IMG/VR virus record: IMGVR_UViG_3300023235_000014
Direction: 5' to 3' (one strand)
Origin: a virus
DNA: 50,582 bases
Each line of letters begins with the position of its first letter. The stretch's first letter is position 1. The notes beneath the pieces are model-generated. The model was given only the letters and a program-made list of their open reading frames with translations, was not told the origin of the DNA and ran no database searches. This document shows, piece after piece, positions 1,405 to 17,256 of this stretch. The position numbers and the translations under genes are program-made.

Positions 1405-1440
1405 ATTATAACAGCAATGGGCCCACAAGTGAACCCATTT
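1405..1440 (-). promoter_or_regulatory. Promoter-like element GGGTTCACT-N17-TATAAT upstream of the RNA ligase gene
   Basis: Minus strand reads AAATGGGTTCACTTGTGGGCCCATTGCTGTTATAATC. The -35-like TTCACT is 17 nt from TATAAT. The motif sits in an imperfect hairpin TGGGTTCA/TGGGCCCA. The SD and ATG lie about 20 nt downstream. Confidence 0.55.
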
Positions 1441-1529
1441 AGCTTTTTCTAAGTGTCCCTAAATAGGGAAAAATTGTATTTCAGTTGTTCGCTACTTTCA
1501 GGCCATCACTCAGCATTCCAAGGAACATC

Positions 1530-2171
1530 CTAGTCTTCCAAAGGTGCAACCATAGCCTTGTCCTTCCAGAACATAAAGGACTCCCGAAGCATCTTGACAA
1601 AGTCTTCGTCAGAGAGCCCCGTGTCGGTCCCGCCATTAGAACCAAAGTGGTTATGCATTAGGACATTCGGCCCGATGGGCATTTCGCCCTCACAAGGGTT
1701 TGCGTTGATTGAGATAATCTCCCAATTCCCCTCTTCTGCGGGAAGTTCGTTATCACCACCCTCAGCAAGGACCGTCGAGGCGTAGAGTACGATCTCTACA
1801 GACTTCGCAGGAAGCTTGTCCGCTGCCACGGCGCCAACACTCTTTCGTGGCGCCTCACCAGCCCGTCGGGCCTTGAATGAACCACGAAGCTCACTGCCCT
1901 CTTCAAGAGTAACTACCCCCGAAAAGAAGTATTGTGGGTTGCATGGAACAAGCACTACACCATCACGGTATCCAGGCTTGCTAACTCCATCAGCTAGCAT
2001 CAGCTCAATGGAGGCACGAAGGTTCTCCCAAACATCAGCAGCCCCAGGAGGGCCATCGAAGTGTGAGAACTCACTCTCAGGGGTCTGGCGCCTGACGAAA
2101 CTGTTCACGTGTACTGTAGTCGTTGTTCCTGCCTTTTTCATTCTTCCATTATACCATATTTGGGATGGCAT
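1530..2171 (-). CDS. Hypothetical protein (213 aa) adjacent to the RNA ligase
   Basis: Long ORF on the same strand as its neighbours. No motif I can name with confidence. Confidence 0.5.
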   Translation of the reverse strand: MPSQIWYNGRMKKAGTTTTVHVNSFVRRQTPESEFSHFDGPPGAADVWENLRASIELMLADGVSKPGYRDGVVLVPCNPQYFFSGVVTLEEGSELRGSFKARRAGEAPRKSVGAVAADKLPAKSVEIVLYASTVLAEGGDNELPAEEGNWEIISINANPCEGEMPIGPNVLMHNHFGSNGGTDTGLSDEDFVKMLRESFMFWKDKAMVAPLED

Positions 2172-2220
2172 ATGAACCGCTATTTCTCATTTTAAGCTGG
2201 TTTTCTTCTTTCTGACTGGT

Positions 2221-2553
2221 TCATTGCTTTTCCTTGTACAGTTGGGTTATTCGGCGGACCACAACCTTGGATTTCTGGCGATATTCCTGAGACTGGAAGC
2301 TCCAGTAATAAAACCACAGGTTACGCAGGTTCTCAGACCTAATGCTCCATTGAGCAAACCAGCCCTTAGTGATGTTTGCATGGATTTTGGTCAGTTCGAC
2401 ATGCATCAGGAAAATAGGCCACAGCAGACCATCCAGGTCATTTTCTGGGCTTCCAGAGACTTCTCGGCCAAACCAAACCCCAGTTTTGAATACAACCTGG
2501 GTAAAGAACCCCAGTACCTTCAGCTGCCTACGCTTCACAATTGCCACAGACAT
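2221..2553 (-). CDS. Hypothetical small Trp-rich protein (start at internal Met, MSVAIVKRRQ...)
   Basis: The ATG at 2553 lies 4 nt after the stop of the upstream zinc-finger gene (TGAAAAAATG coupling). The longer form in the ORF track overlaps the neighbouring gene. The antisense plus ORF 2224..2574 is the alternative reading. Confidence 0.35.
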   Translation of the reverse strand: MSVAIVKRRQLKVLGFFTQVVFKTGVWFGREVSGSPENDLDGLLWPIFLMHVELTKIHANITKGWFAQWSIRSENLRNLWFYYWSFQSQEYRQKSKVVVRRITQLYKEKQ

Positions 2554-2557
2554 TTTT

Positions 2558-2935
2558 TCAATCTTTCTTTCTGACCTTACAGGTGCGTGCATTATGGCCA
2601 GCGTTTCCACACTTGCCACACTTGCGAACATTTTTCTTACGTTCAACCCGCTTAGGGCGGGCCAGCTCCTGAGTACTATTGCCGCTGTCAATGCCCTCCT
2701 TAACTGAAGAAAGGCGAAGGACCACTCCCATTGCTCGAAGTTCACCCTCAGATTTCACTCGGCGAGTAGCTGGATCGTGAGTCTTCATAGCCTCTAGACG
2801 TCGAGCAAGGCTCTCGGATTCATGGAGGTCTCTACACTCCTGGGAACAATAGAGAAAGAGTTCCTCATCTCGTTCAGGCGTCAGTGGGGGTTTTCGAGCC
2901 TTACAACGTGTGCAAAGCATTATCGGGTGAATCAT
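2558..2935 (-). CDS. Small zinc-binding protein with an N-terminal TRASH-like C-x2-C-x17-C-x3-C motif and a C-terminal CCHC zinc knuckle
   Basis: Start trimmed to the ATG at 2935 (MIHPIMLCTRC...), which has SD AGGAAGG 7 nt upstream and removes the overlap with the GNAT gene. The C-terminus CGKCGNAGHNARTC fits C-X2-C-X4-H-X4-C exactly. The N-terminal region is CTRC...17 aa...CSQEC. Confidence 0.6.
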   Translation of the reverse strand: MIHPIMLCTRCKARKPPLTPERDEELFLYCSQECRDLHESESLARRLEAMKTHDPATRRVKSEGELRAMGVVLRLSSVKEGIDSGNSTQELARPKRVERKKNVRKCGKCGNAGHNARTCKVRKKD

Positions 2936-3012
2936 TGGTCTTACCTTCCTATCTTCATTATACCAAAATGAAGATAGGGTTTGAACCAACTTTCGGACAT
3001 TTAACCAAAAGG

Positions 3013-3474
3013 CTAAACTGGCATGTTCTTTCTGCGGTCTATGTAGGCCCAGCTCACTGGAATGTCGGGGACATCGTTGGAACTGTAGAAGCTTCGACCT
3101 GCCTCGTTCCAGGAATTGGAACGCATTGTTAGCCTGTTTGCCTTGCACCAGGCTTTAGCCTTAGCGATTAATCGTGAGCCAACCCCTCGGCGCCTGTGTT
3201 TTGAGCCAACGAAACATCCAACTTGACCAACCCCCTTTTTTGTTGGGTTGAAGGTTACGGAAGCCCAGCCTATCGGTTTACCGTGTTCCCAGGCAACGAA
3301 CATCATCATAGGCCGCCCGAGATCCAAATCCGAGTTCATCCCCGAACCAATGTCCCAGTTGCCGTCGGCGTAGTTGTTGAGATGGTCTTGAAGGTAATCA
3401 ACTAGCTTGAACCTTTTTTGAAAAACGTAGGCACTTTCATAGCGCATGATTTTAATCACTGCCCACTCCGACAC
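3013..3474 (-). CDS. GNAT family N-acetyltransferase
   Basis: GNAT motif A: VGSKHRRRGVGSRLIAKAKAW (R/Q-x-x-G-x-G/A). Confidence 0.7.
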   Translation of the reverse strand: MSEWAVIKIMRYESAYVFQKRFKLVDYLQDHLNNYADGNWDIGSGMNSDLDLGRPMMMFVAWEHGKPIGWASVTFNPTKKGVGQVGCFVGSKHRRRGVGSRLIAKAKAWCKANRLTMRSNSWNEAGRSFYSSNDVPDIPVSWAYIDRRKNMPV

Positions 3475-4411
3475 AGTCCCATTCCTTACGATATCTTAGC
3501 AGGGCTAGTTCTTTGGCCTTGGCTTCGATCATAATATCGATACTCTTACCGTGATCGCCGATAGGGTTGAAGATGTAGTCAGAGTGTGCTTGAGGTTTGC
3601 AGTAGTCGGTGCCGTCGGCATTGCGCTTAGTCTCCGAGTAGTGTGTTACAGGTCTGACGTGTCCCCAGGTGGACATCGCAAGTTCTAGGGCGTCCAGGAC
3701 AGGAAGATCAGAGCGGAACTTGTGGTGGTGGAAATCAAACACAACGGGGATACCGAGAGGTTTGTGTACATATTCATATAGTTCCTTGGTGGAGTACAAC
3801 GAGGGTCGGTCATCATTCTCAACCGTGAGACGAGTTTTGACCGAATCAGGAAGTTTATCGAAGTTTTGACAGAACTGCTTGAGAGCAGCGGGCTTGTCAT
3901 CATAGGCTGCGCCTACATGAATATTGATCTTGTTGAATGGAGTCCGTGAAAGGCCAATAAGGTCAAAAACTTCGCCGTGAATCTCCAAGTCACGAATGGT
4001 ATTTGCCACAACTCTTGGTTTGGAACTTGCCAGCTTGTTGAACGGACCAGGGTGTGAAGTGATGCGATGACCATGCTGCTTGGCAAAATCACCAGCAGCC
4101 CTGAGAGTCGTCACAATCTCGCCGTAGTCGGGCAAGTCAGAAAGGTTGTACTCGGAAGCCCAGGGACAAATGTCACTTGAAAGTCGGAAGAAGGTAATGT
4201 TGTGCTCTTCATTCCACTTTAGAATAGTAAGCAAATCCCTGGCGTTTTGAAGAAGCAGCTCAGATGCGTAAGCTAAGCCTTTGGCTTCAAAGGTTGCTTT
4301 GCGCATTGTGCGATTGGTGGTAACACGATTCTTTTTAGGCTTCACGTTCGTCAACGTCATGTTGATACAGGCATAGCCTAGCGAAGCGTAATGATCAGTA
4401 CGAGTTGTCAT
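3452..4411 (-). CDS. uvdE: UV damage endonuclease UvdE (UVDE family)
   Basis: 319 aa. N-terminal LGYACINMTL and an overall TIM-barrel UvdE-like sequence with conserved His/Glu/Asp-rich blocks (HVGAAYDD, ENDDRP, DFHHH). Confidence 0.85.
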   Translation of the reverse strand: MTTRTDHYASLGYACINMTLTNVKPKKNRVTTNRTMRKATFEAKGLAYASELLLQNARDLLTILKWNEEHNITFFRLSSDICPWASEYNLSDLPDYGEIVTTLRAAGDFAKQHGHRITSHPGPFNKLASSKPRVVANTIRDLEIHGEVFDLIGLSRTPFNKINIHVGAAYDDKPAALKQFCQNFDKLPDSVKTRLTVENDDRPSLYSTKELYEYVHKPLGIPVVFDFHHHKFRSDLPVLDALELAMSTWGHVRPVTHYSETKRNADGTDYCKPQAHSDYIFNPIGDHGKSIDIMIEAKAKELALLRYRKEWDCVGVGSD

Positions 4412-4516
4412 GAGGTTACTTTACCATGCCTGGTAATCCTTATAAACTGTTTCTGGGACGCAAATAACGAAAAGGTTGCACAGGCTGGGAAATGAATCCC
4501 ACGGTCCTGTGAGCTT

Positions 4517-5077
4517 TTAGGCTTTTTTCTGTTTCTTAACTTTTTTGACCGTTTTGCTATGGGAGGCAAAGTTTTCCTTATAGAAAGAATGCCAGTTTTT
4601 GTTCGGGACAAAATCACCCTTATATCCGTGTCCACACTGTGCTGGCTCTTTGGGTCCCCAATCGCAAAAATAAGAAAGCCAGGCTGAAGCCTCTGCATTT
4701 GGAACGAGTCCATGGTCGCTCTTCCATTGAGCAGCCCTAACTGCTTTTACTTTCAACGTCTGGAACAGGGTCTCGGAGGAATATTGGTTCAGTCCAAGCC
4801 TGATATCCTTCGCCACATCACTGTTCGTATAGTTGGTATATTTTTCTGGGTATTCCTGGGGCGCCAGTCGGTCGAATCCACTGCATCCTCTCATAATATC
4901 AAGCATTTCCTCCAGGTGTTCTGCTTGACTCTTTAGGACCATAGCCCACTCCATGTATTTTAGGGTACGTTCAGAACGATATTCCTCATCAAATGAAAAA
5001 AACCTCAGTGCCAGATTTCGGAGTTCTTCGCTGTGTTCATCTCGGGTTCTTTCTGTCCCAAATTTCCTAAATGGCAT
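4517..5077 (-). CDS. Hypothetical protein (186 aa, start at the ATG with SD AAGGGG)
   Basis: The ORF track begins at a GTG at 5095. The ATG at 5077 is preceded by AAGGGGTGTTGT and is the more likely start. The overlapping ORF 4408..4713 is probably spurious. Confidence 0.5.
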   Translation of the reverse strand: MPFRKFGTERTRDEHSEELRNLALRFFSFDEEYRSERTLKYMEWAMVLKSQAEHLEEMLDIMRGCSGFDRLAPQEYPEKYTNYTNSDVAKDIRLGLNQYSSETLFQTLKVKAVRAAQWKSDHGLVPNAEASAWLSYFCDWGPKEPAQCGHGYKGDFVPNKNWHSFYKENFASHSKTVKKVKKQKKA

Positions 5078-5114
5078 ACAACACCCCTTCTGCACATATT
5101 TGTGTACTGTGTTT

Positions 5115-5421
5115 CAATCAGATGCATCTGTAGCGGATTTGTATTCCTGTGAATATGGTTCTAGGCTATTGACAAGAGTTGTCGCATATGAACGAGCCTC
5201 TTGAGCTGCCGCTTGTTCAATTTCGGGGCCGATGTCATTAGCAAAGGTGGTAAATACCTGGACCTCAGCCAAGTTTGCCACCATTCCTGGGAACTTCTCC
5301 CAGGTGAATTTCAGCCCTGGTTAGATTCATCTTGAAAGAACTCAAACAACCTGGTCGCTAGGATGCGACCATACTCCTGAGCTAACTCAATTTGGCTTTT
5401 CTTCTTTTTCTTCTTACTCAT
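5115..5421 (-). pseudogene. Frameshifted small gene (MSKKKKKKSQIELAQEYGRILATRLFEFFQDESNQG, then a +1 shift into ...KFTWEKFPGMVANLAEVQVF...SATDASD)
   Basis: Two collinear open frames (5311..5421 and 5115..about 5320) joined by a 1-nt frame change near 5311..5325. They fill an otherwise 340-nt gap with no ORF. Confidence 0.3.
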
Positions 5422-5433
5422 CGGCACGCCCTG

Positions 5434-5688
5434 TCAATCAACCTTGGTCAACTTGTTGGCAACAATGCTCCAGAGGTGCTTGTTCCCGTGAGCATCCTCA
5501 AGTTCAAGAACTCGTGAGTTGGAGTTGGTCCCGTTGAGAAGTCCAGAGCACATGATCGTGCAGTTCAATTCCTCTTCAACATGCCGAATAAGGAGGTGAT
5601 ACTCGTCGGTCCCCTCCTCGGACATCCTATCGAGAGCCATATCCAGGAGATTGAAAATGAAGTCTGAACTGTGATCATTTTTGTTCAT
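5434..5688 (-). CDS. Hypothetical protein (84 aa)
   Basis: ORF on the local coding strand, immediately downstream of the tRNA. Confidence 0.45.
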   Translation of the reverse strand: MNKNDHSSDFIFNLLDMALDRMSEEGTDEYHLLIRHVEEELNCTIMCSGLLNGTNSNSRVLELEDAHGNKHLWSIVANKLTKVD

Positions 5689-5718
5689 CGGGGTTATCTT
5701 CTCTTTCTATTCATTTAG

Positions 5719-5790
5719 TGGGTCCACTCAGATTCGAACTGAGAACCAAGAAGTTAAAAGCTTCCTGCACTGCCATTGTGCTATAGACCC
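5719..5790 (-). tRNA. tRNA-Lys(UUU): tRNA-Lys (anticodon UUU)
   Basis: Minus strand reads GGGTCTA-TA-GCAC-AATGGCA-GTGC-A-GGAAG-CTTTTAA-CTTCT-TGGT-TCTCAG-TTCGAAT-CTGAG-TGGACCC-A. Acceptor stem is 7 bp with one G-U pair. The T-loop is TTCGAAT. The anticodon loop CTTTTAA gives anticodon TTT. Discriminator A. No CCA is encoded. Confidence 0.9.
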
Positions 5791-5911
5791 AGGTTTGGCG
5801 CTTTTATATTCTCTATTTATAGCTTTGCGTTCACATTGGGTAGCGCCTGGTTGTTTGGAACCACAACCTATGTTGTTCTATCCCGCTCAACCTTTGAAAA
5901 CCCAGAATTTT

Positions 5912-5945
5912 TCGTACGCTGTCGGATTTGAACCGAGTCAGTTTA
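5912..5945 (-). other. tRNA-like T-arm fragment (GGTTCAAATCC), not a complete tRNA
   Basis: Minus strand has CTCGG-TTCAAAT-CCGAC followed by AGCGTACG. No complementary 5' acceptor strand or anticodon arm can be folded. Confidence 0.2.
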
Positions 5946-6147
5946 CCTGCCAAGTTGCCATCTTAGTACATTTTAATCTAATCTTTTTCGGTTAGACGAT
6001 CCCAGGCGAACGGGCTTCTACAGGATGTCTGACCAGCTTCATCGGAGGTCAATGCCTCCTCCACCAGGTGTCACAGCACTCTCACAACGTACAAAGACTT
6101 TCAAAGACCTGTCTTCTTTCTAGCAAAGAATAGGCAGAATCTGAACC

Positions 6148-6363
6148 TCAAATCACCTTTTCACCTTTTTTTGTGAGGCTGCCGTTCTTTATTTTACAGA
6201 GCCTACTGAATACTTTCAACACACGCAAACGTGGGCAGGTTGGTGTTACCGACACATTAGATGTAGACACCAGAAAGTCACCATGAACAATCAGAGGTGC
6301 ACCACATGCCGCCCGCTCGGCAGCATTCTCTGAATAAATGTGTGTGTACTTACCTTTACTCAC
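6148..6363 (-). CDS. Hypothetical small protein (71 aa, GTG start overlapping the ligase stop)
   Basis: GTGA overlap with the stop of the DNA ligase gene. Weak RBS. Confidence 0.3.
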   Translation of the reverse strand: MSKGKYTHIYSENAAERAACGAPLIVHGDFLVSTSNVSVTPTCPRLRVLKVFSRLCKIKNGSLTKKGEKVI

Positions 6364-7421
6364 TCGTAGTCCCGCACCGCTACGAACTGTGGAAATCTTG
6401 GCACACCAGTTTCCTTGAACGTTTCTGTGTATCGAAAAGTAATTACCGACCCAAGTGGCGGTGGGTTTTTGCGGAGCTTGTGTGTAAGCCCACCAACCTT
6501 AGTTTCAACATTGCCCCACTTCAAACGGATCGAGCCAACCCTACCCTTGTGTTGGCCCTTACCATCGATGTATCCAACGACCACACCCTCATCATCGAAC
6601 CACTTCTTCACCTTCAGGCAGGTGTTGGACTTACCCTCTTCATACATTGAACCAGGCATGCGAATCATGATGCCCTCGCCGCCCTCAGCGACAATCTTGT
6701 CGACTCGCCTGGTAAGATCAGCAGCGGACTTACACCTGGTGTGCGGAAGCACACGAGCAACCCCACCCTTTGAACCAGGCTCCCAGACAGGAAAAAGCCC
6801 CTTGAGAAACTCAACACGAACCTCAAAAGCGTCACCTTGCTCTGGAGCGTCGAAAATCACATATGTGATGTTGTTCCACTCGTCATCATTCGGGATGAGC
6901 TTACGGGCAGCGCCCGAGGTCTTGGTAAAGTTTCCTCGACCAGCAAAAAGCTCGCCATCAAGAACAACGCCCCTGGGCAACTGTTCCTTAAACCACTTGG
7001 GTGCATGGAACTCATTGCCATTGCGACTTAGAAAGCGCTCACCAGTCCACCAGGCTCGAACGCCATCAAGCTTTTCGGACATCCACCAATCAGTCGGGTC
7101 CTCATTCTCCCACTTGTGGGCGAGTAACACGGGAGGTGCAGCATCCTTTTTGACGGCAGCCTTTCTCGGAGCGCCCTTGCCGCCCTTCTTCGGTTTGGCC
7201 TTTTTGCTGTCGTACATCGCATGGGCCTGCGGGAGCAAGCAGGCACGGTCAACGTTCGCACGGATGTGCTTGCAGACACGGAGATCAAGAGGGCCTCCGA
7301 TGTTCCGCCAGGCGGGGCAAGAACAGTCCACCACGCCGCCGACGTTTCTGAGCAGGTATGGTTTCTTTCCTGAACCCTTTACTTCGATTGAGTCGCCGTC
7401 GTTCAAAAACACTTTAGTCAT
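6360..7421 (-). CDS. ATP-dependent DNA ligase with N-terminal SWIM-type zinc finger and a basic Lys/Ala/Pro-rich linker
   Basis: Motif I EKLDGVRAW (KxDGxR), motif IV EGIMIR, motif V LKVKK, and a C-terminal OB-like region. The N-terminus has CSC-x16-CKH (CxC...CxH SWIM pattern) followed by KKAKPKKGGKGAPRKAAVKK. SD AAGGAAA upstream. Confidence 0.85.
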   Translation of the reverse strand: MTKVFLNDGDSIEVKGSGKKPYLLRNVGGVVDCSCPAWRNIGGPLDLRVCKHIRANVDRACLLPQAHAMYDSKKAKPKKGGKGAPRKAAVKKDAAPPVLLAHKWENEDPTDWWMSEKLDGVRAWWTGERFLSRNGNEFHAPKWFKEQLPRGVVLDGELFAGRGNFTKTSGAARKLIPNDDEWNNITYVIFDAPEQGDAFEVRVEFLKGLFPVWEPGSKGGVARVLPHTRCKSAADLTRRVDKIVAEGGEGIMIRMPGSMYEEGKSNTCLKVKKWFDDEGVVVGYIDGKGQHKGRVGSIRLKWGNVETKVGGLTHKLRKNPPPLGSVITFRYTETFKETGVPRFPQFVAVRDYE

Positions 7422-7448
7422 TTCGTTTCCTTAGTTTTCCATTCTTCA

Positions 7449-7481
7449 ATTATACCAGTTTCGAGGTCACATTTGAACCTA
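7449..7481 (-). promoter_or_regulatory. Promoter-like element AGGTTCAAAT-N17-TATAAT upstream of the DNA ligase gene
   Basis: Minus strand reads TAGGTTCAAATGTGACCTCGAAACTGGTATAATTGAAG. The spacer is 17 nt exactly. RBS AAGGAAA and the ATG at 7421 lie downstream. Confidence 0.55.
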
Positions 7482-7482
7482 T

Positions 7483-7737
7483 TTACCAGGAAATATCAGC
7501 AGAATCCCGCTTTTTCGGGCTGCGGTGACGTCGTTCCTCGGCTGCTGAAGCAGTGTCTACCGCAAGGTCCCACACAAAATGGGTGTCATCGTCGAGCCAT
7601 GCAAGGCAATCGAAGTGCAAAGCAGCCTCTTCGGCTAGTTTGGTGCAGTTGACATCTCCATGTTCGTCCCAAAGACCACAATCGTAATCTTGGAGAGTCT
7701 GAAACATGAACTTACGAATTTTGGCTGGATTGCTCAT
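7483..7737 (-). CDS. Hypothetical protein (84 aa)
   Basis: ORF with a Trp/Asp-rich sequence, preceded by a promoter-like element and GGAAACGAGGAG-type SD. Confidence 0.45.
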   Translation of the reverse strand: MSNPAKIRKFMFQTLQDYDCGLWDEHGDVNCTKLAEEAALHFDCLAWLDDDTHFVWDLAVDTASAAEERRHRSPKKRDSADISW

Positions 7738-7767
7738 CTGACTCTACTCCTCGTTTCCTTCTAATTG

Positions 7768-7800
7768 ATTATAGCAGATTTATATGCCAAAATGAACCCC
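7768..7800 (-). promoter_or_regulatory. Promoter-like element GGGGTTCATT-N17-TATAAT
   Basis: Minus strand reads TGGGGTTCATTTTGGCATATAAATCTGCTATAATCA. The GGGTTC part is the 3' arm of the perfect hairpin at 7794..7824. Confidence 0.5.
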
Positions 7801-7824
7801 ATAGGTAAAAAACCTATGGGGTTC
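7794..7824 (-). terminator. Perfect 12-bp stem-loop (GAACCCCATAGG-TAAAAAA-CCTATGGGGTTC) with a following T-run on the minus strand
   Basis: Lies downstream of gene 7866..8246 on the minus strand. The hairpin is followed by CATTTTGG. It overlaps the -35 region of the next promoter. Confidence 0.5.
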
Positions 7825-7865
7825 ACACGAAAAAGGAGATTTAAAGACCACACATGGGCTGGGTT

Positions 7866-8246
7866 TCAGAGCCGTTCTAGAAGGTTGCCAGCAATACGCT
7901 CCTTGATACGTGAAATCACATAGACAAGGTGCTCGCTTGAGCCGTCTTCTTCTGCGTATAGAGGAGCCCATGAGGCTCCAATGGCCTCGTGCTCCTGAGG
8001 CTCCAGATAAGTTGCAGCCATCTTTAGTGAAGTCGCAGCATTACACCAACCGTGGTGATTGAAGCCATCACTTACACCCTCGACAACTTGGTCGAGGAGC
8101 TTATGGACGTACTTGATCGTCCTAAGACGATTCCTTTCCGCACGTTGTCTGCGTTTGTCTCTCTCTGTTTCTTTGTCACTCGTTGAACTGGAAGTCTCGC
8201 TGGTTTTTGGACCACTGGGCTTTTTCTTTACGTAATCTCTGCTCAT
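7866..8246 (-). CDS. Hypothetical protein (126 aa, basic Ser/Arg-rich N-terminus)
   Basis: ORF on the local coding strand. Confidence 0.45.
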   Translation of the reverse strand: MSRDYVKKKPSGPKTSETSSSTSDKETERDKRRQRAERNRLRTIKYVHKLLDQVVEGVSDGFNHHGWCNAATSLKMAATYLEPQEHEAIGASWAPLYAEEDGSSEHLVYVISRIKERIAGNLLERL

Positions 8247-8302: not shown

Positions 8303-8326
8303 TGGGCTCAATTAGTTGAACCCATT
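8303..8326 (-). promoter_or_regulatory. Imperfect hairpin carrying the AATGGGTTCAACT motif (terminator and/or weak promoter)
   Basis: Minus strand reads AATGGGTTCAACTAATTGAGCCCACATG, located 5 nt after the stop of gene 8331..8732. It has the same motif as the other four sites but a poor -10. Confidence 0.35.
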
Positions 8327-8330
8327 ATTT

Positions 8331-8732
8331 TCAGGGAGTTTTAAGTTTTTTGGCGGGCGAAAGTAGGTGTAGCGGGACAAGGTACTTCCGATCAAATCCT
8401 AGGATACAAGCCATATGTCTTGTCTTATTCCCAGTTGTGACCAAAAACCTTTTCAAGAACATTCCTAACGCTGGAAGCTCTGGTGACCTTCCTAACCATT
8501 TGTCTTCGTCCCTCGTTAAAGATGAGGATAAAATCCAACTAGGGGCACATTCTTCATACATCCGTGATGAATGATCAAGCACCACTGTTCTAAAAAACTG
8601 TTCCAAGTGCGGCTCAACCCTAATCGAATTACCTTCTGAAGATTCAAAAAGTTCCTCTGACAGAACTCTCCAACAAAGTGACTTTTTGTCGTCATTAATG
8701 TAGACGAGTTTGCCTGGGTGATACTTGGGCAT
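8331..8732 (-). CDS. Paralog-array member P5 (133 aa), HPGKLVYIN family
   Basis: N-terminal MPKYHPGKLVYIND and central RTVVLDHSS align with the KPGQLVVIN ... VMVMRHYV motifs of the other array members. Confidence 0.5.
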   Translation of the reverse strand: MPKYHPGKLVYINDDKKSLCWRVLSEELFESSEGNSIRVEPHLEQFFRTVVLDHSSRMYEECAPSWILSSSLTRDEDKWLGRSPELPALGMFLKRFLVTTGNKTRHMACILGFDRKYLVPLHLLSPAKKLKTP

Positions 8733-8742
8733 CGTTTATTGA

Positions 8743-9219
8743 CTATATCTTAGCAGGTTCGATCAAGGGAATAAACACTAATCCTGGATGCTTCGACAAT
8801 TTTTCTTCTGTAGTGTATTTGAGGAGGGACCTGCCAATACCTTCGTCCTTCTGTACGGCTATGACAGACTCGTACAACTTGTCTCCCGAAAGGAGGATAA
8901 GCGAGGCATAACCCAAATGGTTTAGGGCCCAGGAACCCCTTTTAGCAGATTTCTCGTAATGTTGTTGGCAGTGACACCAAGTAGGTTTTTTCACAACAAG
9001 CAGGATGGCCTCGGTCATAAAGTGCAAATGGGTCTTTGGGCGGCCTAAAGATGTTCCTGGAATTGGTGACTCAAGAGGAAGTGCCAAAAGTGAAAAACGA
9101 GGCCTTATGAGATTTCCAGGTTTCAAAACATCAGATGCATATTTTGCCGCATCAAGTTTGGACTCAAAAAGGGACTTGAGGAAAGCCTGTTTGTTGTATT
9201 CGTAGCTATAGGTTAACAT
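8743..9219 (-). CDS. Paralog-array member P6 (start trimmed to the internal Met; KPGNLI ... ILLVVKKPT)
   Basis: Contains LKPGNLIRPRF and ILLVVKKPTW. The full 197-aa track ORF overlaps P4 by 131 nt, so the internal start at 9219 is used. Confidence 0.4.
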   Translation of the reverse strand: MLTYSYEYNKQAFLKSLFESKLDAAKYASDVLKPGNLIRPRFSLLALPLESPIPGTSLGRPKTHLHFMTEAILLVVKKPTWCHCQQHYEKSAKRGSWALNHLGYASLILLSGDKLYESVIAVQKDEGIGRSLLKYTTEEKLSKHPGLVFIPLIEPAKI

Positions 9220-10510: not shown

Positions 10511-10515
10511 ATAAG

Positions 10516-10992
10516 TTAAATAGAGTGTCCATCAATGTCAAACTTAGTGTAATCAAATTCTACGGAAAACTCGCATGCCTCGGGTCTTACTTGAGCAGCA
10601 TAGCCAAAATCAATCGCATGTACAGTAGGCTCGTGGAAAGTCCAGGTTGAAAGTATCGCAGCCTCCTCTTCATCAAGAAAGTTAATTCTGAGTTCTTCCA
10701 TGCCTTCGTTTACCGACCTAAGGATTTCACCAAAGACGCCATTTTTGTGGCTACCATTGAATGTGAAGAGCAGATAGCCCTTCTCTGAATAGCCAACTTT
10801 GGGATTTAAATCGTTGAATATGTATTTGGGAAGAATAATGCTTTTTATGTCTTCCTGCTCAACTTCTAATCCTTCCACAAAGAAGTGGTCCTTGTGGACT
10901 GGTTCCCCAGGAGCGGGTTCTGCTGGAAGCTTTGCTGTCTTTCCTGACTCAATGGGGCCTTGAAACGTTGGCTCTTGATGTTCTTCACTCAT
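10516..10992 (-). CDS. Hypothetical acidic protein (158 aa)
   Basis: ORF on the local coding strand. Confidence 0.45.
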   Translation of the reverse strand: MSEEHQEPTFQGPIESGKTAKLPAEPAPGEPVHKDHFFVEGLEVEQEDIKSIILPKYIFNDLNPKVGYSEKGYLLFTFNGSHKNGVFGEILRSVNEGMEELRINFLDEEEAAILSTWTFHEPTVHAIDFGYAAQVRPEACEFSVEFDYTKFDIDGHSI

Positions 10993-11048
10993 ACCTGTAT
11001 TGTGCTTTCTGTTCTACCATTTGGATCACCTGCCTTGTTCAAATAACG

Positions 11049-11693
11049 TTACCAGGTTGAAGGATTTGTGTAGATGTCAGTCTTACTGGTTTTCCCATCC
11101 AAGATGTCATCAATTTTTCCGAAGCGTACTTCACTCTTGGCTCCTCGGGCATGCTGCTCCATAATATTGTCATAATAGGCTCGTCCTCGGTGCTCCCCAA
11201 CCATATTGGTAACTGATTCAAGAACAATTGACAGTTTCGTAACGAGGAGAGAACTCGGACAGATTAGCCATATGAGAAGTCCTAGCCACCATAGTCCTGT
11301 GCCAATGGTTGCAAGCCCCACAAAAAGCCCCAAAAGCCCAAAAGTGAACCCTCGTTGTACTGATTGGCGAACATGCCTCATTTCGTGGTGTAATGTAAAT
11401 GTGTTCATTCCATTTTCAGAAAGCATGATGGCGTAAGGGAACAAAGCAGTGCCGTTCCAGGGTTTCTTGTGCTTAGAGCCATCTGAGTAAGTCTTTTCAA
11501 GGAGGTACCACCCTCCAAACTTTTTCTCATCATTGACAGGCCAAGAGTCATTTCTCAGAACGGTACAAAGTGCACCTTCCCACCAGAAAAGCCGCCGACC
11601 CCACATTGCATGGATGACCAAAACTACCAGCCAGCCAAAAAGGGCAAGTAGTGGCACAGAGCATATTCTCAATATCGTAAAAAATGTATTCAT
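11049..11693 (-). CDS. Integral membrane protein with an HExxH motif (possible membrane zinc metallopeptidase-like)
   Basis: Several hydrophobic helices (LLALFGWLVVLVIHAMW, FGLLGLFVGLATIGTGLWWLGLLIWLI) flank LHHEMRHVRQ. Confidence 0.45.
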   Translation of the reverse strand: MNTFFTILRICSVPLLALFGWLVVLVIHAMWGRRLFWWEGALCTVLRNDSWPVNDEKKFGGWYLLEKTYSDGSKHKKPWNGTALFPYAIMLSENGMNTFTLHHEMRHVRQSVQRGFTFGLLGLFVGLATIGTGLWWLGLLIWLICPSSLLVTKLSIVLESVTNMVGEHRGRAYYDNIMEQHARGAKSEVRFGKIDDILDGKTSKTDIYTNPSTW

Positions 11694-11709
11694 GTTGTAC
11701 GTTCCTGTG

Positions 11710-14700
11710 TTAGGCGAGAACTTTCGATTCGATGCCGTCGTTTTTGACTTCGATCATTCGTTCAGCAACCTCCTTGACTGGAGTGACATGCGAAATCACA
11801 AGAATCGTCTTGAAGTACCCACGAAGGAAGGTAAGCATATCCATACAGCTCTGGATGTTATTTTCATCCAACGCACCGAAGCCCTCATCGATAATGAGCA
11901 CATCGGGTTTTGGAAGCGACGATAGGTTGATTAACGCAGCCCTTAGGGCCATGCTTGCAATTGTCTTTTCCATGCCAGAAGCCAACTCGATAATACGCTG
12001 GCTGTGTTCATCCTGAATATAGACGTCCATGACATTGGAGTTAATATCAGTCTCCAGACCAATCTTGAAGTCGGTGATACCCTCAAGAATCTTTGACAGT
12101 TCTTCGTTGATGGCAGGAAGCTGGGACTTGAGGACCATAGCGGGGATTCCCGTCTTTGAGAATGCGGATAGGATGGAGTCATAAATCTTCAATTTGCCTA
12201 TCAACGATTTTGTTTCTTCCTCTTCCATAATAAGGTTTTTCAACCCCTCTTTCTTGCCGCCTAGTTTTACCAGGGTTTCCTGGCGCCTTGTTTCAATATC
12301 CGCAACTAGTTGACGACATTTATCAAGCTGAATTTTCTTCTTCTCATACTCTTTGCCCTCTAACACGTTGACCTTCTTCTTCAATGAAGAAATTTCGTCC
12401 TTGATTTTCTTGACTTCAAGTTTTGTTGATGTGAACTCCTTTTTCAGGAGTTCACGGTGCTTTTTGCTTGATTCAATAGTGCGAATAAGATCAAATTCCT
12501 GACGGTCCAAGGTTTGGTGTGTGGTAATCTGCTCACGAAGTTTTTTAGCAACGTACTCTTCAAAAGTCTTTTCATTTATCTCATATTGGGACGTGAGTTT
12601 CTTTACCAGCTCTTCTTGAGTTTTAACCTTCTTTTTGTCTCGGTGACCGTCTTTGATATAATGGCAGTCTGGAAACTGGTCACCACAAGGCACGACTTCC
12701 AGTTTTTTGATGTTCTTTTTCTGGTTGTTTAGTACGGCCTTGTGCGAGTTCAGCTCTGCTCTAAGTTCATGCAAAAGCGACTTTAAGGATTCAAATTCTT
12801 CAAGCTGTTCCTTGAGCGACACAACGTCGATTTTCTTCTTGTCAGCCTTTACGTCTTTCAGCTTAGTTTCATTAGATTTGAGTCCTGATTTTAGTCTTAC
12901 AAGACTGTCTGACTTTGCCTTGACAGTCTTTTCACCAGCAATCACCTTTCGCTCCAGCTCTTCCATGTGAGCGAGGTCGACATCCGCAGCATTTTTTTCG
13001 TGATGCATCAGCCAAAGCTTGACTGAATCCTTTTGCTCACGGAGTTTTCGTAGTCGCTCCTCAAGTGAGCCAACTTCATTTTCTCCCTGGGCAATTATCT
13101 TCCTCGTTTTCACGATTTGATTGCTTACGGTCTGTGGTGAAAGAGAGTTTCCACGAGTGTTAAGTCCGCTGTAATCATCCTTGCAGAGGTAATAGAGGTT
13201 GTCAAATATATCAAGTTCTAGGAAGCGAGCCAGAATTTTCTTTCGCTCTGTTGGGCCTTCCTTGATAAAGCGATCTACCGAGCCCTGAGAGGACAGGGCA
13301 GTCAGTAGAAAGTCATTGGATGTTCCGACAAGCTTTCTGATTTCTTTGTCCGTGTCGTCACGAGTGACGGAGTTCATAACCACTTTTTTCTCGTGACCTG
13401 TTACTTCATCCCGTTCAATGCGATAGAAATTCAAAGTGGTGGTGGTCTTGTTCGGGTCTCGCTTTGAAGTCTTCTTTTTAGGGACGACCCTAGTGCTCTT
13501 TCGTTCAACGATATAATCCGTGCCACCCACATTGATACGGACCTTACCACGACACCAATTTTTACGTCGGTTAATGATGTGAGCATTTTTCATCGGACCA
13601 CGATCGGTGGTGTTGTACAAAACATACATCAAGGCTCCGACAATGCTGCTTTTCCCTATCTTGTTTGGACCGAAAATACCTACTATGCCCTCTAGGTCTG
13701 AGAAATCAATTTTATTGCCTTCGCCGTAACGGAAAATGTTGTCAAACTCCAGATATTTGATCGACCAGTTGGTTGTCCTGGCAATTTTGTCTGAGTCTCG
13801 AATCATGAGCTTTGACATGTAACCACGAATAAGCTGGTCTGCTTCTTCGATAGCATCACGGTCAAAGTTGTAGCTAGCGATATGAGCTGTTAGATAATCT
13901 AAGTAAAGCCGAACAACTGCGTCTGGATCCTGCCTTAGGCTTTTTTTGGAAATCTTAAGGTTGTCATTTGTAGACACATGGTCCATTCTTGACAACATAT
14001 TGTATTTAAAGACTACCTCAGAAGCTTTCTTCTCTTCCCTGAGCGAATGGACCAATTTTCGGGCTTCGACACTAGGAATTGCTGAAGAGGAGGACACACG
14101 GAAACGGCTGCCCTTGAGGAAAGCTCGTGTGCCCCTTGAATCCTTGACTTTTTGCAGTGTGTTTTCAACTGAGCCTTCCCAGCCAATGGTTATAAAGGGC
14201 ATGCGGTTCTCAAGCTCATGGAACTTGATGGACCAGTCATCCTTGTCCTTTATGTCCCAAATCAAGTAACCCTTCTTTTCGGATTCTCCGAAGTTTTGTT
14301 GAATCAGGGAGCCAGGGTAAGCCATCCAAGGCTTAAGTTTTCCATTTTTGTCTTTACGCTGTGCTAGAGTCTGGTGCTTGTGAATGTCACCAAGCAAAGT
14401 AAAATCAAACTGTGCAAAGTCAGTAGTCACTGCTTCGGCGATGCCTTCTGGCATCTTCCAGTTGTTGTCCATTAAAGAACCTGCAACCGAACCGTGGTAT
14501 AATGCTATATTGATCGCCCCTTCGATAGGTTTGACTTTGGGCCAGCCCTTTTGATCAAAAGGGGAATATACACACAGATGGACGTCTTTTCCTTTAACTT
14601 TCTCGCTGAGTTTGAAAGTTCCTGATTCACGTAGTAGGTGAGCACGAGGGTGCGCAATGGATTCGTGAATTGGTGTGATTGTATCCTTGCGATATAAATT

Positions 14701-14958
14701 CGTCAGATTGCCATCGTGATTCCCTAAGATGGTGTAAGACGGTGCGATGTCCGCAAGCGAGCGAAACATCCAAGCAAGCCGTTCAATGATTTCTGGTGTT
14801 ATACCCTGGGTTTTGGTATGGAACGTATCCCCTGTATTCACAATTAGGTCTGGCTTGTGGTGTCGAAGCTCTTCAAAAAGACGTTCAAAAGCTTGAACGT
14901 ACTCTTTATGACGAGAAATGCCACGCCAATGTATGTCGGAGATGTGAGCAATTTTCAT
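11710..14958 (-). CDS. Mre11-Rad50 fusion (SbcD nuclease fused to SbcC ATPase; T4 gp47+gp46 equivalents in one 1082-aa polypeptide)
   Basis: N-terminal calcineurin-like phosphoesterase motifs HISDIHW, GDTFH, GNHD, HGS and GDIHKHQ (Mre11 motifs I to V). Walker A GIFGPNKIGKSS. Long coiled-coil. Signature LASGMEK, Walker B VLIIDEGF and D-loop ALD at the C-terminus. Start taken at the ATG at 14958 (MKIAHISDIHWRG), with AAGGA 9 nt upstream; the longer track start at 15030 is rejected. Confidence 0.85.
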   Translation of the reverse strand: MKIAHISDIHWRGISRHKEYVQAFERLFEELRHHKPDLIVNTGDTFHTKTQGITPEIIERLAWMFRSLADIAPSYTILGNHDGNLTNLYRKDTITPIHESIAHPRAHLLRESGTFKLSEKVKGKDVHLCVYSPFDQKGWPKVKPIEGAINIALYHGSVAGSLMDNNWKMPEGIAEAVTTDFAQFDFTLLGDIHKHQTLAQRKDKNGKLKPWMAYPGSLIQQNFGESEKKGYLIWDIKDKDDWSIKFHELENRMPFITIGWEGSVENTLQKVKDSRGTRAFLKGSRFRVSSSSAIPSVEARKLVHSLREEKKASEVVFKYNMLSRMDHVSTNDNLKISKKSLRQDPDAVVRLYLDYLTAHIASYNFDRDAIEEADQLIRGYMSKLMIRDSDKIARTTNWSIKYLEFDNIFRYGEGNKIDFSDLEGIVGIFGPNKIGKSSIVGALMYVLYNTTDRGPMKNAHIINRRKNWCRGKVRINVGGTDYIVERKSTRVVPKKKTSKRDPNKTTTTLNFYRIERDEVTGHEKKVVMNSVTRDDTDKEIRKLVGTSNDFLLTALSSQGSVDRFIKEGPTERKKILARFLELDIFDNLYYLCKDDYSGLNTRGNSLSPQTVSNQIVKTRKIIAQGENEVGSLEERLRKLREQKDSVKLWLMHHEKNAADVDLAHMEELERKVIAGEKTVKAKSDSLVRLKSGLKSNETKLKDVKADKKKIDVVSLKEQLEEFESLKSLLHELRAELNSHKAVLNNQKKNIKKLEVVPCGDQFPDCHYIKDGHRDKKKVKTQEELVKKLTSQYEINEKTFEEYVAKKLREQITTHQTLDRQEFDLIRTIESSKKHRELLKKEFTSTKLEVKKIKDEISSLKKKVNVLEGKEYEKKKIQLDKCRQLVADIETRRQETLVKLGGKKEGLKNLIMEEEETKSLIGKLKIYDSILSAFSKTGIPAMVLKSQLPAINEELSKILEGITDFKIGLETDINSNVMDVYIQDEHSQRIIELASGMEKTIASMALRAALINLSSLPKPDVLIIDEGFGALDENNIQSCMDMLTFLRGYFKTILVISHVTPVKEVAERMIEVKNDGIESKVLA

Positions 14959-14961
14959 ATT
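14920..14961. repeat. Copy A of a 45-nt duplicated block (true mre11 5' end)
   Basis: gccacgccaatgtatgtcggagatgtgagcaattttcatatt, compared with copy B at 15606..15647, gccacgccaatgaataccagatatgtgagcaattttcatatt. The flanks are identical (20 and 13 nt). The central 12 nt have 5 substitutions. Confidence 0.8.
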
Positions 14962-15644
14962 GAGTCCTTTTTCAGAAGGGCTTTGGTCCGAGCCCCCCAA
15001 GTTTTTGTTTTTTTGTGGCATGAAATACAAAGTGTTCTTCCGTTACCAATATCCCACAGTTCGACACATTTCACAGCTTCCTCCAGGGTCTCGATGGCAT
15101 TTCTCTGTATCAACAGAGCCAGAGGAACAATATGGTCTGCATTCAGATTTCCACCTTTTGTTTTGCAAAATTGACAGGTGTAATCATCTTTTTCAAAAAC
15201 TGCTTGCCGCCAATTCTTGGATTCAATTCTATCTCGCAAGGCTTTGTTTAAGGTTTTCTTGTGTTGGTCTACTGGTTTCCAGTTGGGACTCTTCCTCCCA
15301 GCCAACCTTCCTTTGTTTGCCTTGCTTATTTTGTTCTTGGTGTGGTCAGAATGAGTTTTTCCAAAAAATCCATTGTTCTTACCACAAGTCGCCCGAGACA
15401 TCTTTTCCAAAGATTGCCTTGTGTGCTTACGACCAAAAAAAGCATTTTTGTTGCCCTGGGCAGCTTCTGTTCTAGTTCTTCTCGGGATGCCAAATTTAAT
15501 CAACTTGGCTCGCACAGTCGCATACGTAACGCCAAACAACTCTGCAACTTGCCTTAAAGATAACTCTTGTGTGCAATACAGTTTGGTAAGTGTTTCTTTG
15601 TTAGTGCCACGCCAATGAATACCAGATATGTGAGCAATTTTCAT
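14955..15644 (-). CDS. HNH homing endonuclease (N-terminal HTH, NUMOD3-like repeats, C-terminal HNH); its first 13 codons duplicate the mre11 start
   Basis: MKIAHISGIHWRG, then LRQVAELFGVTYATVRAKLIKFGIP (HTH), then GKTHSDHTKNKISKANKG (NUMOD3-like), then CQFC...NADHIVP...NGRTLCISCH (HNH). The stop TGA overlaps the mre11 ATG. Confidence 0.85.
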   Translation of the reverse strand: MKIAHISGIHWRGTNKETLTKLYCTQELSLRQVAELFGVTYATVRAKLIKFGIPRRTRTEAAQGNKNAFFGRKHTRQSLEKMSRATCGKNNGFFGKTHSDHTKNKISKANKGRLAGRKSPNWKPVDQHKKTLNKALRDRIESKNWRQAVFEKDDYTCQFCKTKGGNLNADHIVPLALLIQRNAIETLEEAVKCVELWDIGNGRTLCISCHKKTKTWGARTKALLKKDSI

Positions 15645-15647
15645 ATT
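15606..15647. repeat. Copy B of the duplicated block (5' end of the HNH endonuclease ORF)
   Basis: See copy A. Confidence 0.8.
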
Positions 15648-15721
15648 ATTTTACGATCTATGAGTAACTACTTTCTTCCCATGCACACAATGTATGAAAT
15701 GAGTAAATTCAAAACTCTTTG

Positions 15722-16750
15722 TTAATTTAACAGAGACGTGATTCTCATTCTGAGTTCGTAGTTCTCTGTAAGAGGTTTAGCAGAGTTGAGTAGTTTCATA
15801 AACTCGTTTCGAGTCATGTCGCCGATATCCTTGTCCCAGGAGGGGTATTCGAGAATCCGAACTGATATATCAAACTCTGCCAGGCGTTTTGCAAGCCTAA
15901 ATTGTTTTTTCTGAGCCTTGGGTTCAGGGTCAAATGCCAATACAACTGGTGTCTTATTGATAACGATTTTCTGTAAAAGCGCAAATTCTAAAGTCAATTC
16001 CTCAGAGCCAAGAACCGCTGTAGCATTCTGGTTCGCCTTCAGCAAATCAAAGGGGCCTTCGACTATAGTCAAGGGCTCTTCCCAATCAATGTTCAATTCA
16101 TTGAAGATTATCTTACGTCGGTCGCTTGGCGGGTTCTTGTAATTGAACATTGGCTTCCTTGTCCAGGAACGAGCCGTCCAATAAGATAGTTCTCCGCTTG
16201 AATCATAAGACGGAATGATAATGCGATACTTGCACCTAGCTTCACGGTCTTCTGTGATGCCAAGCTTCCAATACCACAACTCAGTCCTTGTATTTATATT
16301 CCTCGATTTTAAATATTCGAGTGCCTGTTGCACATAACGTCGTGTGACAGGAGAATGTATGGAGTCGAAGTCCCTGACAAGCTCTGCCAATAACTTAAAA
16401 CCCGCTGGGAGTTCGACAACAGTTTCTTCTGGCCCTTCATCCGAATCCTGGGCCTCAAGCTCCTCAGCGTTTACAAAAGATTCCTTGTACTCTTTGAGAT
16501 TTGCAGGATGGTATTTGGCGATAAGCTTGTAGATGTTGCGAGCCTTATACCCACAAACCCAACAGTGAACAAAATGCGGATGAACCGTCTTAATGACCAG
16601 CTTCTGCTTAGTGTAAGATGAACCTTTAAATTGCCTGCACATAGGACAAACGACGGAAAAGTTTTTCCCGCCGTTTGAAGGTTTTCCATCGCCAAAAACC
16701 TTTTCTATGAAGTCAATTGCTTGACCTTGTGTGAAATAATTTTGACTCAT
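15722..16750 (-). CDS. DNA primase (T4 gp61 / DnaG-like: zinc ribbon plus TOPRIM)
   Basis: CPMC...HCWVC zinc-binding domain, TOPRIM IVEGPFDLL (EGxxD), and acidic DxD-type residues downstream. Confidence 0.8.
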   Translation of the reverse strand: MSQNYFTQGQAIDFIEKVFGDGKPSNGGKNFSVVCPMCRQFKGSSYTKQKLVIKTVHPHFVHCWVCGYKARNIYKLIAKYHPANLKEYKESFVNAEELEAQDSDEGPEETVVELPAGFKLLAELVRDFDSIHSPVTRRYVQQALEYLKSRNINTRTELWYWKLGITEDREARCKYRIIIPSYDSSGELSYWTARSWTRKPMFNYKNPPSDRRKIIFNELNIDWEEPLTIVEGPFDLLKANQNATAVLGSEELTLEFALLQKIVINKTPVVLAFDPEPKAQKKQFRLAKRLAEFDISVRILEYPSWDKDIGDMTRNEFMKLLNSAKPLTENYELRMRITSLLN

Positions 16751-16762
16751 CTGACTTCTGTC

Positions 16763-17185
16763 TTAGGCCACCTTTGTACAAACCTTGTGGGGAACAAGGA
16801 TCATCTTGTCCTTGACCATGATGAAGCAGTAAATGGCGTAGCCAGGTTCCAACTCAGGATTCTTCTGTAGTTCTTCCTCGGTGGGCAGTGACTCGATCCA
16901 AAACTGTGACAAGACCATGCCGTGGGACCCGCTCTCGAAGTGTACCTGCTCAGTAGCTTCGGCAAATCGGCTAGGAGCCTCGGAACCATCTGGATAAATA
17001 TCCTCAGACCCCAGGATCATGCCGTGTTGACCCATTAGCCAGTCAACAATGGCCTGTTTGGAAAATGCGGCAGCTGACACCTGACTCTGTTTGCTTCGTA
17101 CCTGCTTGGCATTGCCCTGAAGGTACACTGTCTGACCCACAGGCCAAAGGTGCGGCTTCCTCGGATCATCAATTTCTCTAGCCAT
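16763..17185 (-). CDS. Hypothetical protein (140 aa)
   Basis: ORF with a promoter-like element upstream. Confidence 0.45.
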   Translation of the reverse strand: MAREIDDPRKPHLWPVGQTVYLQGNAKQVRSKQSQVSAAAFSKQAIVDWLMGQHGMILGSEDIYPDGSEAPSRFAEATEQVHFESGSHGMVLSQFWIESLPTEEELQKNPELEPGYAIYCFIMVKDKMILVPHKVCTKVA

Positions 17186-17221
17186 TCTCGTCGTTCCAGT
17201 CTGTTTTAGAAAGTGCTATAT

Positions 17222-17256
17222 CACTATAACCTAATGCTCGGTACCAAGTGAACCCT
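17222..17256 (-). promoter_or_regulatory. Promoter-like element AAGGGTTCACT-N18-TATAGT in the divergent intergenic region
   Basis: Minus strand reads AAAAGGGTTCACTTGGTACCGAGCATTAGGTTATAGTG. Confidence 0.45.

Follow-up and report, generated by a model that had tools for sequence, protein, structure and literature searches.

A recurrent GGTTCA...TATAAT element, probably a sigma70-type promoter, precedes leftward genes of an uncultured giant phage

Background

The early promoters of bacteriophage T4 carry a -35 sequence, GTTTAC, at positions -36 to -31, together with an A-rich, UP-like stretch between -40 and -44 and a conserved -10 sequence (PMC1524935). The base at -33 differs among T4-like phages, being T in T4 and preferentially G in RB49, RB43 and Aeh1, and early promoters in this group are also found upstream of transfer RNA (tRNA) genes (PMC1524935). 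T4 middle promoters are composed of a MotA box, (a/t)(a/t)(a/t)TGCTTtA, separated by 11-13 nucleotides (nt) from a TAtaAT sequence (PMC1524935). Described here is an element to be compared with these, found in a stretch of viral DNA 50,582 nt long, IMG/VR record IMGVR_UViG_3300023235_000014 (referred to below as the window). It consists of GGTTCA, 16 further nt, TGn and TATAAT or, equivalently, of TTCAnn, a 17 nt spacer and TATAAT; coordinates given for it are those of minus-strand sites in the window.

These elements probably serve the phage as strong promoters of the sigma70 family (group 1), at which the RNA polymerase holoenzyme of the host would start transcription of a set of leftward genes. 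Their cargo comprises leftward genes of DNA and RNA metabolism, small open reading frames (ORFs) and a unit encoding a tRNA and a non-coding RNA (ncRNA).

Results

Recurrence beyond chance

The GGTTCA...TATAAT element is real and recurs beyond chance. A frequency no higher than random was the outcome that would have told against the original prediction, and the window contains five copies of GGTTCA-N19-TATAAT where dinucleotide-preserving shuffles predict 0.02, none of 100 shuffles reaching five. Each of these exact copies (1435..1405, 2178..2148, 2987..2957, 7479..7449 and 7798..7768) is a minus-strand site in a non-coding gap, 6-30 nt 5' of a start codon, with TG at -15/-14. Relaxing the pattern to GTTCA-N15-17-TGnTAnnnT gave six matches in the window against 0.38 expected, while the canonical GTTGA version gave none against 0.44; the GTTTA version gave two weak matches against 0.39, a count reached by 6/100 shuffles. 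Canonical TTGACA-type promoters showed no enrichment on the leftward arm (20 found, 21 expected). An incidental control was provided by 1.23 Mb of bacterial loci, which contain one match to the GTTCA form, and a search of the literature on GGTTCA with promoters and phages found nothing relevant.

Members of the family and their recovery from relatives

Near-identical DNA was not found in the phage collection, IMG/VR gave no close relatives of either ligase, and relatives were reached through protein homologs and their contigs. An identical DNA ligase is present on contigs of up to 285 kb and homologs 52-65% identical on contigs of 205-343 kb, which therefore represent a clade of uncultured giant phages. 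Intergenic, co-oriented copies of the element occur in the syntenic contig L125 (ligase 64% identical; five copies, plus one with a 15 nt spacer), in L127 (ligase 62%; five copies) and in L196 (ligase 44%; three copies). No such element was found in L128 and L129, which encode ligases 54-57% identical in a different gene neighbourhood, and it is therefore not universal in the wider clade. The nearest cultured phage, Microcystis phage Mel-JY01, has about 27-31% identity over three proteins and was uninformative as a comparison, TGnTAnnnT being too frequent at 32% GC.

A position matrix trained on 12 sites from L125, L127 and L196 only was used to score the window. Its ten best matches are all on the minus strand and the top six, spanning 35.6 to 15.1 bits, are P5, P2, P3, P6, P1 and P4 of the list below; null maxima were mostly 8-13 bits. 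The seven members, all on the minus strand, are:

P1: GGTTCA 1435..1430, TGT 1413..1411, TATAAT 1410..1405; minus strand; 5' of the RNA ligase gene (RNA_lig_T4_1), ATG 1384; 17.3 bits
P2: GGTTCA 2178..2173, TGG, TATAAT 2153..2148; minus strand; 5' of the DUF3228 gene; 28.3 bits
P3: GGTTCA 2987..2982, TGG, TATAAT 2962..2957; minus strand; before a 125-amino-acid ORF, ATG 2935; 25.1 bits
P4: GGTTCA 6147..6142, N16, TGC, TAGAAA 6122..6117; minus strand; 5' of the ncRNA (6092..5914) and tRNA-Lys (5790..5718); 15.1 bits
P5: (A)GGTTCA 7479..7474, TGG, TATAAT 7454..7449; minus strand; before the DNA ligase gene (ligase domains), ATG 7421; 35.6 bits, the top match
P6: GGTTCA 7798..7793, TGC, TATAAT 7773..7768; minus strand; before an 84-amino-acid ORF, ATG 7737; 18.9 bits
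P7: GGGTTCA 17255..17249, TATAGT 17228..17223 (element 17254..17223); minus strand; at the head of the leftward arm, before a 140-amino-acid ORF, ATG 17185

The original prediction had listed five minus-strand sites, and GGTTCA is indeed present at all five, but a credible -10 sequence follows at only four. At these four, TATAAT or TATAGT stands after GGTTCA-N19/20 as proposed; at the fifth, 8322 (8303..8324, minus strand), the -10 position is occupied by ATACCA/TACCAC. The prediction had itself flagged this site (8303..8326) as having a weak -10, and it is rejected as a promoter: it has no TAnnnT at -10 and scores 13.6 bits, a value that null maxima also reach. As a full set the list was incomplete, having missed the perfect copies at 2178..2148 and 2987..2957 and the degenerate one at 6147..6117. 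The last of these, P4, written out as GGTTCA-N16-TGCTAGAAA, surfaced through comparison with a relative.

Two pairs of orthologous promoters could be aligned between the window and L125, and in both, conservation is confined to the GGTTCA box, the TGnTAnAAT block and, where present, the ribosome-binding site; the spacers have diverged. The first pair lies 5' of the ncRNA/tRNA unit, where the L125 ortholog of P4 reads GGTTCA-N16-TGCTAGAAT; the second is P3, 5' of the ORF that follows the acetyltransferase gene, where GGTTCA, GTATAATGAAG and the ribosome-binding site are shared.

The start of the DUF3228 gene downstream of P2 is placed at ATG 2141 (M11) by alignment with the L125 homolog, as against ATG 2171 in automatic gene calls. 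ATG 2141 follows the P2 TATAAT by exactly 6 nt, making the A of the start codon the predicted +1, and from this geometry the messenger RNA transcribed from P2 is probably leaderless. The same leaderless geometry is found at lambda cI PRM.

The two weak GTTTA matches may be variants with T at -33:

4418..4447, minus strand: GTTTA-N16-TGGTAAAGT, possible weak variant, 6 nt 5' of the UvdE ATG 4411, inside the 3' end of the upstream ORF
8747..8776, minus strand: GTTTA-N16-TGCTAAGAT, possible weak variant, 14 nt 5' of ATG 8732, inside the 3' end of the upstream ORF; 11.8 bits

The UvdE start codon overlaps the upstream stop codon (ATGA). A further site, 40383..40354 (GTTCA...TGCTAACAT), was set aside as it falls within an apparent coding remnant of an endonuclease gene.

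The extended -10 sequence TGNTATAAT alone is matched ten times in the window against 0.95 expected. Five of the ten are the exact promoter copies; the other five perfect boxes are intragenic, at 12654 (+), 14495 (+), 21798 (-), 29995 (-) and 30254 (+), with three of the five antisense, and at none of them was a GTTNA box found at -35. These could be antisense or internal promoters, or could reflect a codon effect outside the dinucleotide-shuffle model.

Base conservation across four phages

An alignment of 18 sites from the window, L125, L127 and L196, with P4 left out, gave the following conservation by position:

-42 and -41: A at 13/18 and 14/18
-37: G at 16/18
-36 to -32: G, T, T, C and A, each at 18/18
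-31: C at 6/18
-15 and -14: T and G, each at 17/18
-12: T at 18/18
-11: A at 17/18
-9 and -8: A at 13/18 and 12/18
-7: T at 17/18
Seventh base after the -10: A at 14/18, G at 2/18

The consensus is A-42 A-41, G-37 G-36 T-35 T-34 C-33 A-32, N16, T-15 G-14 n, T-12 A-11 t A A T-7, with a purine at +1. The spacer in the window is exactly 17 nt at six sites and 18 nt at P7. TTCAnn agrees with TTGACA at three of six positions (T, T and A), with an invariant C in place of G-33. With position and distance from an extended -10 unchanged, the sister lineages L139, L141 and L131 have GTTTA, and L137, L138 and L144 have (G/A)TTGA; the upstream box is therefore read as a -35 element, since TTGA or TTTA takes its place in these sisters. 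The base at -33 follows lineage: the window, L125 and L127 have C, as do most sites of L196, and other lineages have T or G.

Distribution and gene context

Every one of the seven members falls in a non-coding gap, in the orientation of the genes. These gaps account for 1.5% of the window's strand-specific positions, giving p ~2e-13 for seven out of seven falling inside them. The -10 sequences are 6-37 nt 5' of a start codon, or stand 5' of RNA genes. Seven of the ten leftward-arm non-coding gaps of at least 56 nt hold a member, a count that omits the 5285..5433 gap, which holds a 36-amino-acid ORF called in L122. The element is absent from the rightward structural arm and its 10 kb extension (L210); nor was a shared late-promoter motif seen on reading the intergenic regions of this arm and its extension by eye, no motif-discovery program having been run.

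The leftward arm, mapped from ORFs, ribosome-binding sites and family hits, begins with the 140-amino-acid ORF, a primase gene, an HNH/NUMOD3 endonuclease gene, a fused SbcD-SbcC gene and around ten small ORFs, and continues with the DNA ligase, the ncRNA, tRNA-Lys, UvdE, a GNAT acetyltransferase, DUF3228 and the T4 Rnl1-type RNA ligase. Most ORFs have no recognisable family match, but the phage does encode a T4 gp13-like neck protein alongside its T4 Rnl1-family RNA ligase.

Several of these genes have features of their own. The ORF at 11710..14958 (minus strand; about 1082-1106 amino acids) joins an SbcD/Mre11-type phosphoesterase to an SbcC/Rad50-type ATPase, functions that T4 splits over two genes, gp47 and gp46. 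The HNH/NUMOD3 homing-endonuclease gene (14955..15644) sits between this fusion and the primase gene. The DNA ligase (6360..7421, minus strand) has a cysteine-rich N-terminal extension (CSCPAWR...CKH). Its nearest full-length cellular homologs, 41-47% identical, are chromosomal genes of Myxococcota and Planctomycetota (loci L213-L266), giving a weak hint as to the origin of the gene or the host; the hint was too weak for host assignment, and these bacterial loci lack the element. On the structural arm, an 863-amino-acid protein (33328..35919, plus strand) has a C-terminal HicA-toxin-like domain (Pfam 5.6e-10; PHROG 'toxin'), and sequence comparison matched no solved structure to the large rightward proteins of 813, 1364 and 782 amino acids.

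Hairpins associated with the box

Hairpins are an occasional addition to the element and not a part of it: across the four phages, a significant fold involves the box at about 5 of 17 sites. The original prediction had reported hairpins at three sites, and all three RNA folds are real, but a U-tract follows just the first. This is the 13 bp hairpin at 7825..7793 (-26.2 kcal/mol, z -7.1; 0/200 shuffles fold as well), after which comes UUUU and whose 3' arm is the GGGGTTCA box, that is, the GGTTCA of P6. The second, at 1439..1416 (-14.6 kcal/mol, z -3.4), and the third, at 8324..8303 (-11.8 kcal/mol, z -4.2), have the box as their 5' arm and contain G.U pairs, without a U-tract; the box in the second is that of P1. 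Two of these can be written out as features:

7789..7825, minus strand: intrinsic-terminator-like hairpin, TGAACCCCATAGG-loop-CCTATGGGGTTCA followed by UUUU, 40 nt past the stop of gene 8246..7866
8303..8324, minus strand: RNA hairpin, TGGGTTCA-ACTAAT-TGAGCCCA, beginning 7 nt past the stop of gene 8732..8331

No significant hairpin was found at P5 (7479), P7 (17254) or P2 (2178), with 7479 and 17254 folding no better than shuffles. The idea of compound terminator-promoter units consequently survives in one place: 7825..7768 is a genuine terminator-promoter fusion and the sole clear case, whereas 1435 and 8322 lack a U-tract and 7479, 17254 and 2178 lack a significant hairpin.

Three further structures were noted. 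At P3 a perfect 12 bp inverted repeat, CCTATCTTCATT-N7-AATGAAGATAGG (2978..2967 / 2959..2948), spans the -10 and reaches the ribosome-binding site, with a folding energy of -16.3 kcal/mol (z -3.7); at the corresponding place in L125 the repeat is shorter, ACCTTC...GAAGGT. The P3 repeat could be an operator, or a hairpin formed in read-through transcripts only and masking the ribosome-binding site. At 11331..11354 (minus strand), GGGTTCACTT falls within a 214-amino-acid ORF, in a G.U-rich hairpin followed by T-runs that a scan flagged as terminator-like, with no -10 downstream. Finally, a palindromic hairpin at 110..145, AAACCCTGC-AAG-CAGGGTTT, with a T-rich tail on either strand, comes directly after the RNA ligase stop; it is likely to be a bidirectional terminator closing the P1 transcription unit.

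A conserved non-coding RNA downstream of P4

Between P4 and tRNA-Lys lies a conserved stretch of about 180 nt (5914..6092, minus strand), with an ortholog at about 11560..11755 of L125. Its conservation relative to L125 is far above that of the flanking intergenic DNA. The ends are paired by a stem of about 12 bp containing one compensatory change (U.G to A-U), and a tRNA-like T-arm (UCGG-UUCAAAU-CCGA) adjoins this stem. The stretch is judged not to be coding because a 2 nt indel breaks the frame of its small internal ORF. It matches no family in Rfam, and the sole IMG/VR match to its core is a chance one inside a coding region. The RNA is reminiscent of the small stable RNAs that T4 encodes within its tRNA cluster.

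Discussion

Interpretation as sigma70-type promoters

The promoter interpretation is supported by the enrichment, the strand and position of the copies, the matrix trained on relatives, the conserved footprints and the purine at the expected +1, and on the same grounds the consensus originally predicted for the leftward genes (TTCAnn, 17 nt spacer, TATAAT) is supported. The purine is a third and independent promoter feature, one predicted by no model in which the box acts at the RNA level or as an operator.

In the mechanism proposed, sigma region 2.4 would read TATAAT and region 3.0 the TG of the extended -10, easing the need for a perfect -35, while region 4.2 would contact TT.A in the -35-like box, which lies at the canonical 17 bp spacing, and the A-rich region around -42 may act as the proximal UP subsite for the alpha C-terminal domain. 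These steps are drawn from established sigma70 biology; the identity of the polymerase and sigma factor and the positions of the start sites are inferred. Judged from the cargo (ligases, primase, SbcCD, UvdE and tRNA), the promoters would fire early in infection. The T4 counterparts of the ligases, primase, SbcCD and UvdE are early or middle genes.

A number of observations weigh against reading the element as an ordinary host-type promoter. Two members depart from the pattern: P4 has A in place of T-7, and P7 is weaker, with its 18 nt spacer from TTCACT, TATAGT for a -10 and no TGn. The G of TTGACA at -33, replaced here by C, is generally held to be important for E. coli sigma70, and the invariance of this C at 18/18 sites resembles positive selection more than tolerance, and could mean a modified or accessory recognition system. 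Conservation is also displaced, with -31/-30, part of the canonical -35 hexamer, not conserved and -37/-36 conserved. Lastly, a phage sigma factor or activator could lie elsewhere in the genome of about 285 kb, of which about 70 kb was covered.

Alternative explanations

In the main alternative the promoters would be factor-dependent, forming a phage-specific and possibly middle class in which host sigma70 reads the -10 and the GGTTCA box requires a phage-encoded component. This component could be a sigma-region-4 remodeller with an activator, as with AsiA and MotA of T4, an Alt-like ADP-ribosylation of RNA polymerase, or a phage sigma factor with an altered region 4. The fixed C-33, set beside sister lineages fixed on T or G, would fit such a system, as would the shift of the conserved block to -37..-32, the lack of enrichment of TTGACA-type promoters on the leftward arm and the absence of GTTGA with an extended -10. 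In T4, moreover, ADP-ribosylated alpha is believed to make contact at -33 (PMC1524935). Against this, the box occupies the canonical -35 position at 17 bp spacing, retaining T-35, T-34 and A-32, and canonical TTGA stands at the same place in sister lineages. Extended -10 promoters, moreover, tolerate weak -35 boxes. No homologs of MotA, AsiA or sigma factors were seen in the window; for the ORF at 49131..50111, PHROG matches to 'Srd anti-sigma' and 'decoy of host sigma70' sit among stronger matches to endonuclease VII/HNH. MotA boxes are centred at -30 with a spacing of 11-13 nt (PMC1524935), unlike the box described here. On balance, factor dependence is improbable. A related but separate proposal, that the -33 base is a lineage-specific determinant read by a phage-altered polymerase, through Alt-like ADP-ribosylation of alpha or a remodeller of sigma region 4, is likewise improbable; if true, each giant-phage lineage would have co-evolved a private -35 code diverting RNA polymerase from host promoters.

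It is very unlikely that GGTTCA is the operator half-site of a dimeric repressor or activator placed over extended -10 promoters lacking a -35. Such an arrangement is suggested by the perfect palindrome GGTTCA-CTCT-TGAACC at L127 12518, by imperfect inverted partners 4-6 nt downstream at 1435 and 8322 in the window and at L125 18366, and by the separate 12 bp inverted repeat across the P3 -10. However, most sites have no inverted partner, those present deviate by A-to-G changes that keep RNA pairing and not DNA symmetry, and a lone 6 bp half-site located exactly at -35 is more simply a -35 element.

Hairpin partner arms that tolerate G.U pairs, as expected of RNA and not DNA pairing, could indicate that GGGTTCA functions in RNA, as an arm of 3'-end or processing hairpins (terminators, stabilisers or RNase sites) with the proximity of TATAAT being secondary. 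Significant hairpins do use the box at 7798, 1435 and 8322, and likewise at L127 12518 and L125 5973. Yet there is no significant hairpin at most sites (7479, 17254 and 2178; L125 7388, 14061 and 18366; L127 5921 and 9607; L196), the box is variably the 5' or the 3' arm, and the fixed 16 nt distance to TGnTATAAT, the +1 purine and the A-rich -42 are left unexplained; 8322, a hairpin without a -10, shows that the two are separable. An RNA-level function as the basis of the element is accordingly hard to credit. An origin of the recurrence in chance or base composition, for which only the weak 8322 and the intragenic GGGTTCACTT at 11350 without a -10 could be cited, has a negligible probability given the shuffles, the independent matrix, the bias of strand and position and the conservation in relatives.

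Implications

Read as sigma70-type promoters, the elements would supply a usable promoter model (A-42/-41, GGTTCA, N16, TGnTATAAT and a +1 purine) for a clade of uncultured giant phages with contigs of about 200-340 kb, whose genes mostly belong to no recognisable family. Such a model delimits transcription units, corrects at least one gene start, that of DUF3228, flags a promoter-driven ncRNA next to tRNA-Lys and sets the leftward replication/early module apart from the structural arm. Variation at -33, earlier seen within T4-like coliphages, is extended by a third base, C, in a far more distant group, and, given a host, mutagenesis and transcription in vitro could show what recognises -33.

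Comparison with known promoter systems

Several described systems share parts of this architecture. Back-to-back terminator/promoter junctions of compact phage genomes are paralleled at 7825..7768, where a strong hairpin with its U-tract closes one transcription unit, while its 3' arm and U-tract double as the -35 box and first part of the spacer of the next promoter; here, though, this is convincing at one junction only and is no general property of the element. T4 middle promoters likewise combine a good, often extended -10 with a non-canonical, phage-specific upstream box (PMC1524935), but differ in the sequence of the box, its position (-30 against -34.5 here) and its spacing from the -10 (11-13 nt against 19 nt). 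With GGTTCA at -37..-32, 19 nt from the -10, the element is not taken for a MotA-dependent middle promoter. Bacterial extended -10 (TGnTATAAT) sigma70 promoters have in common with it the TG (17/18), the consensus -10 and a +1 purine 7 nt downstream; the classical ones need no conserved -35, whereas here a 6 bp block at -37..-32 is invariant.

The closest match is with the early promoters of T4. Shared features are G-36, T-35, T-34 and A-32 (18/18 here), 17 bp spacing to a near-perfect TATAAT preceded by TG, an A-rich -42/-41 (13/18 and 14/18 here), and the presence of many copies before small ORFs, early DNA-metabolism genes and a tRNA gene. The element differs in its extra conserved G-37, in having C-31 at only 6/18 sites and in C-33, which is not described for T4-like phages in PMC1524935. 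The phage itself is only remotely T4-like, through its gp13-like neck protein and Rnl1, and the part of its genome examined yielded no Alt homolog. The original prediction had contrasted the element with the T4 early -35, and one base does differ (C in place of T at -33), but the contrast was overdrawn, as -33 was already variable (PMC1524935) and the A-rich -42 and TGn are common to both. The best reading of these sequences is that the element has the architecture of a T4-type early promoter, with C-33 as its single unusual feature.

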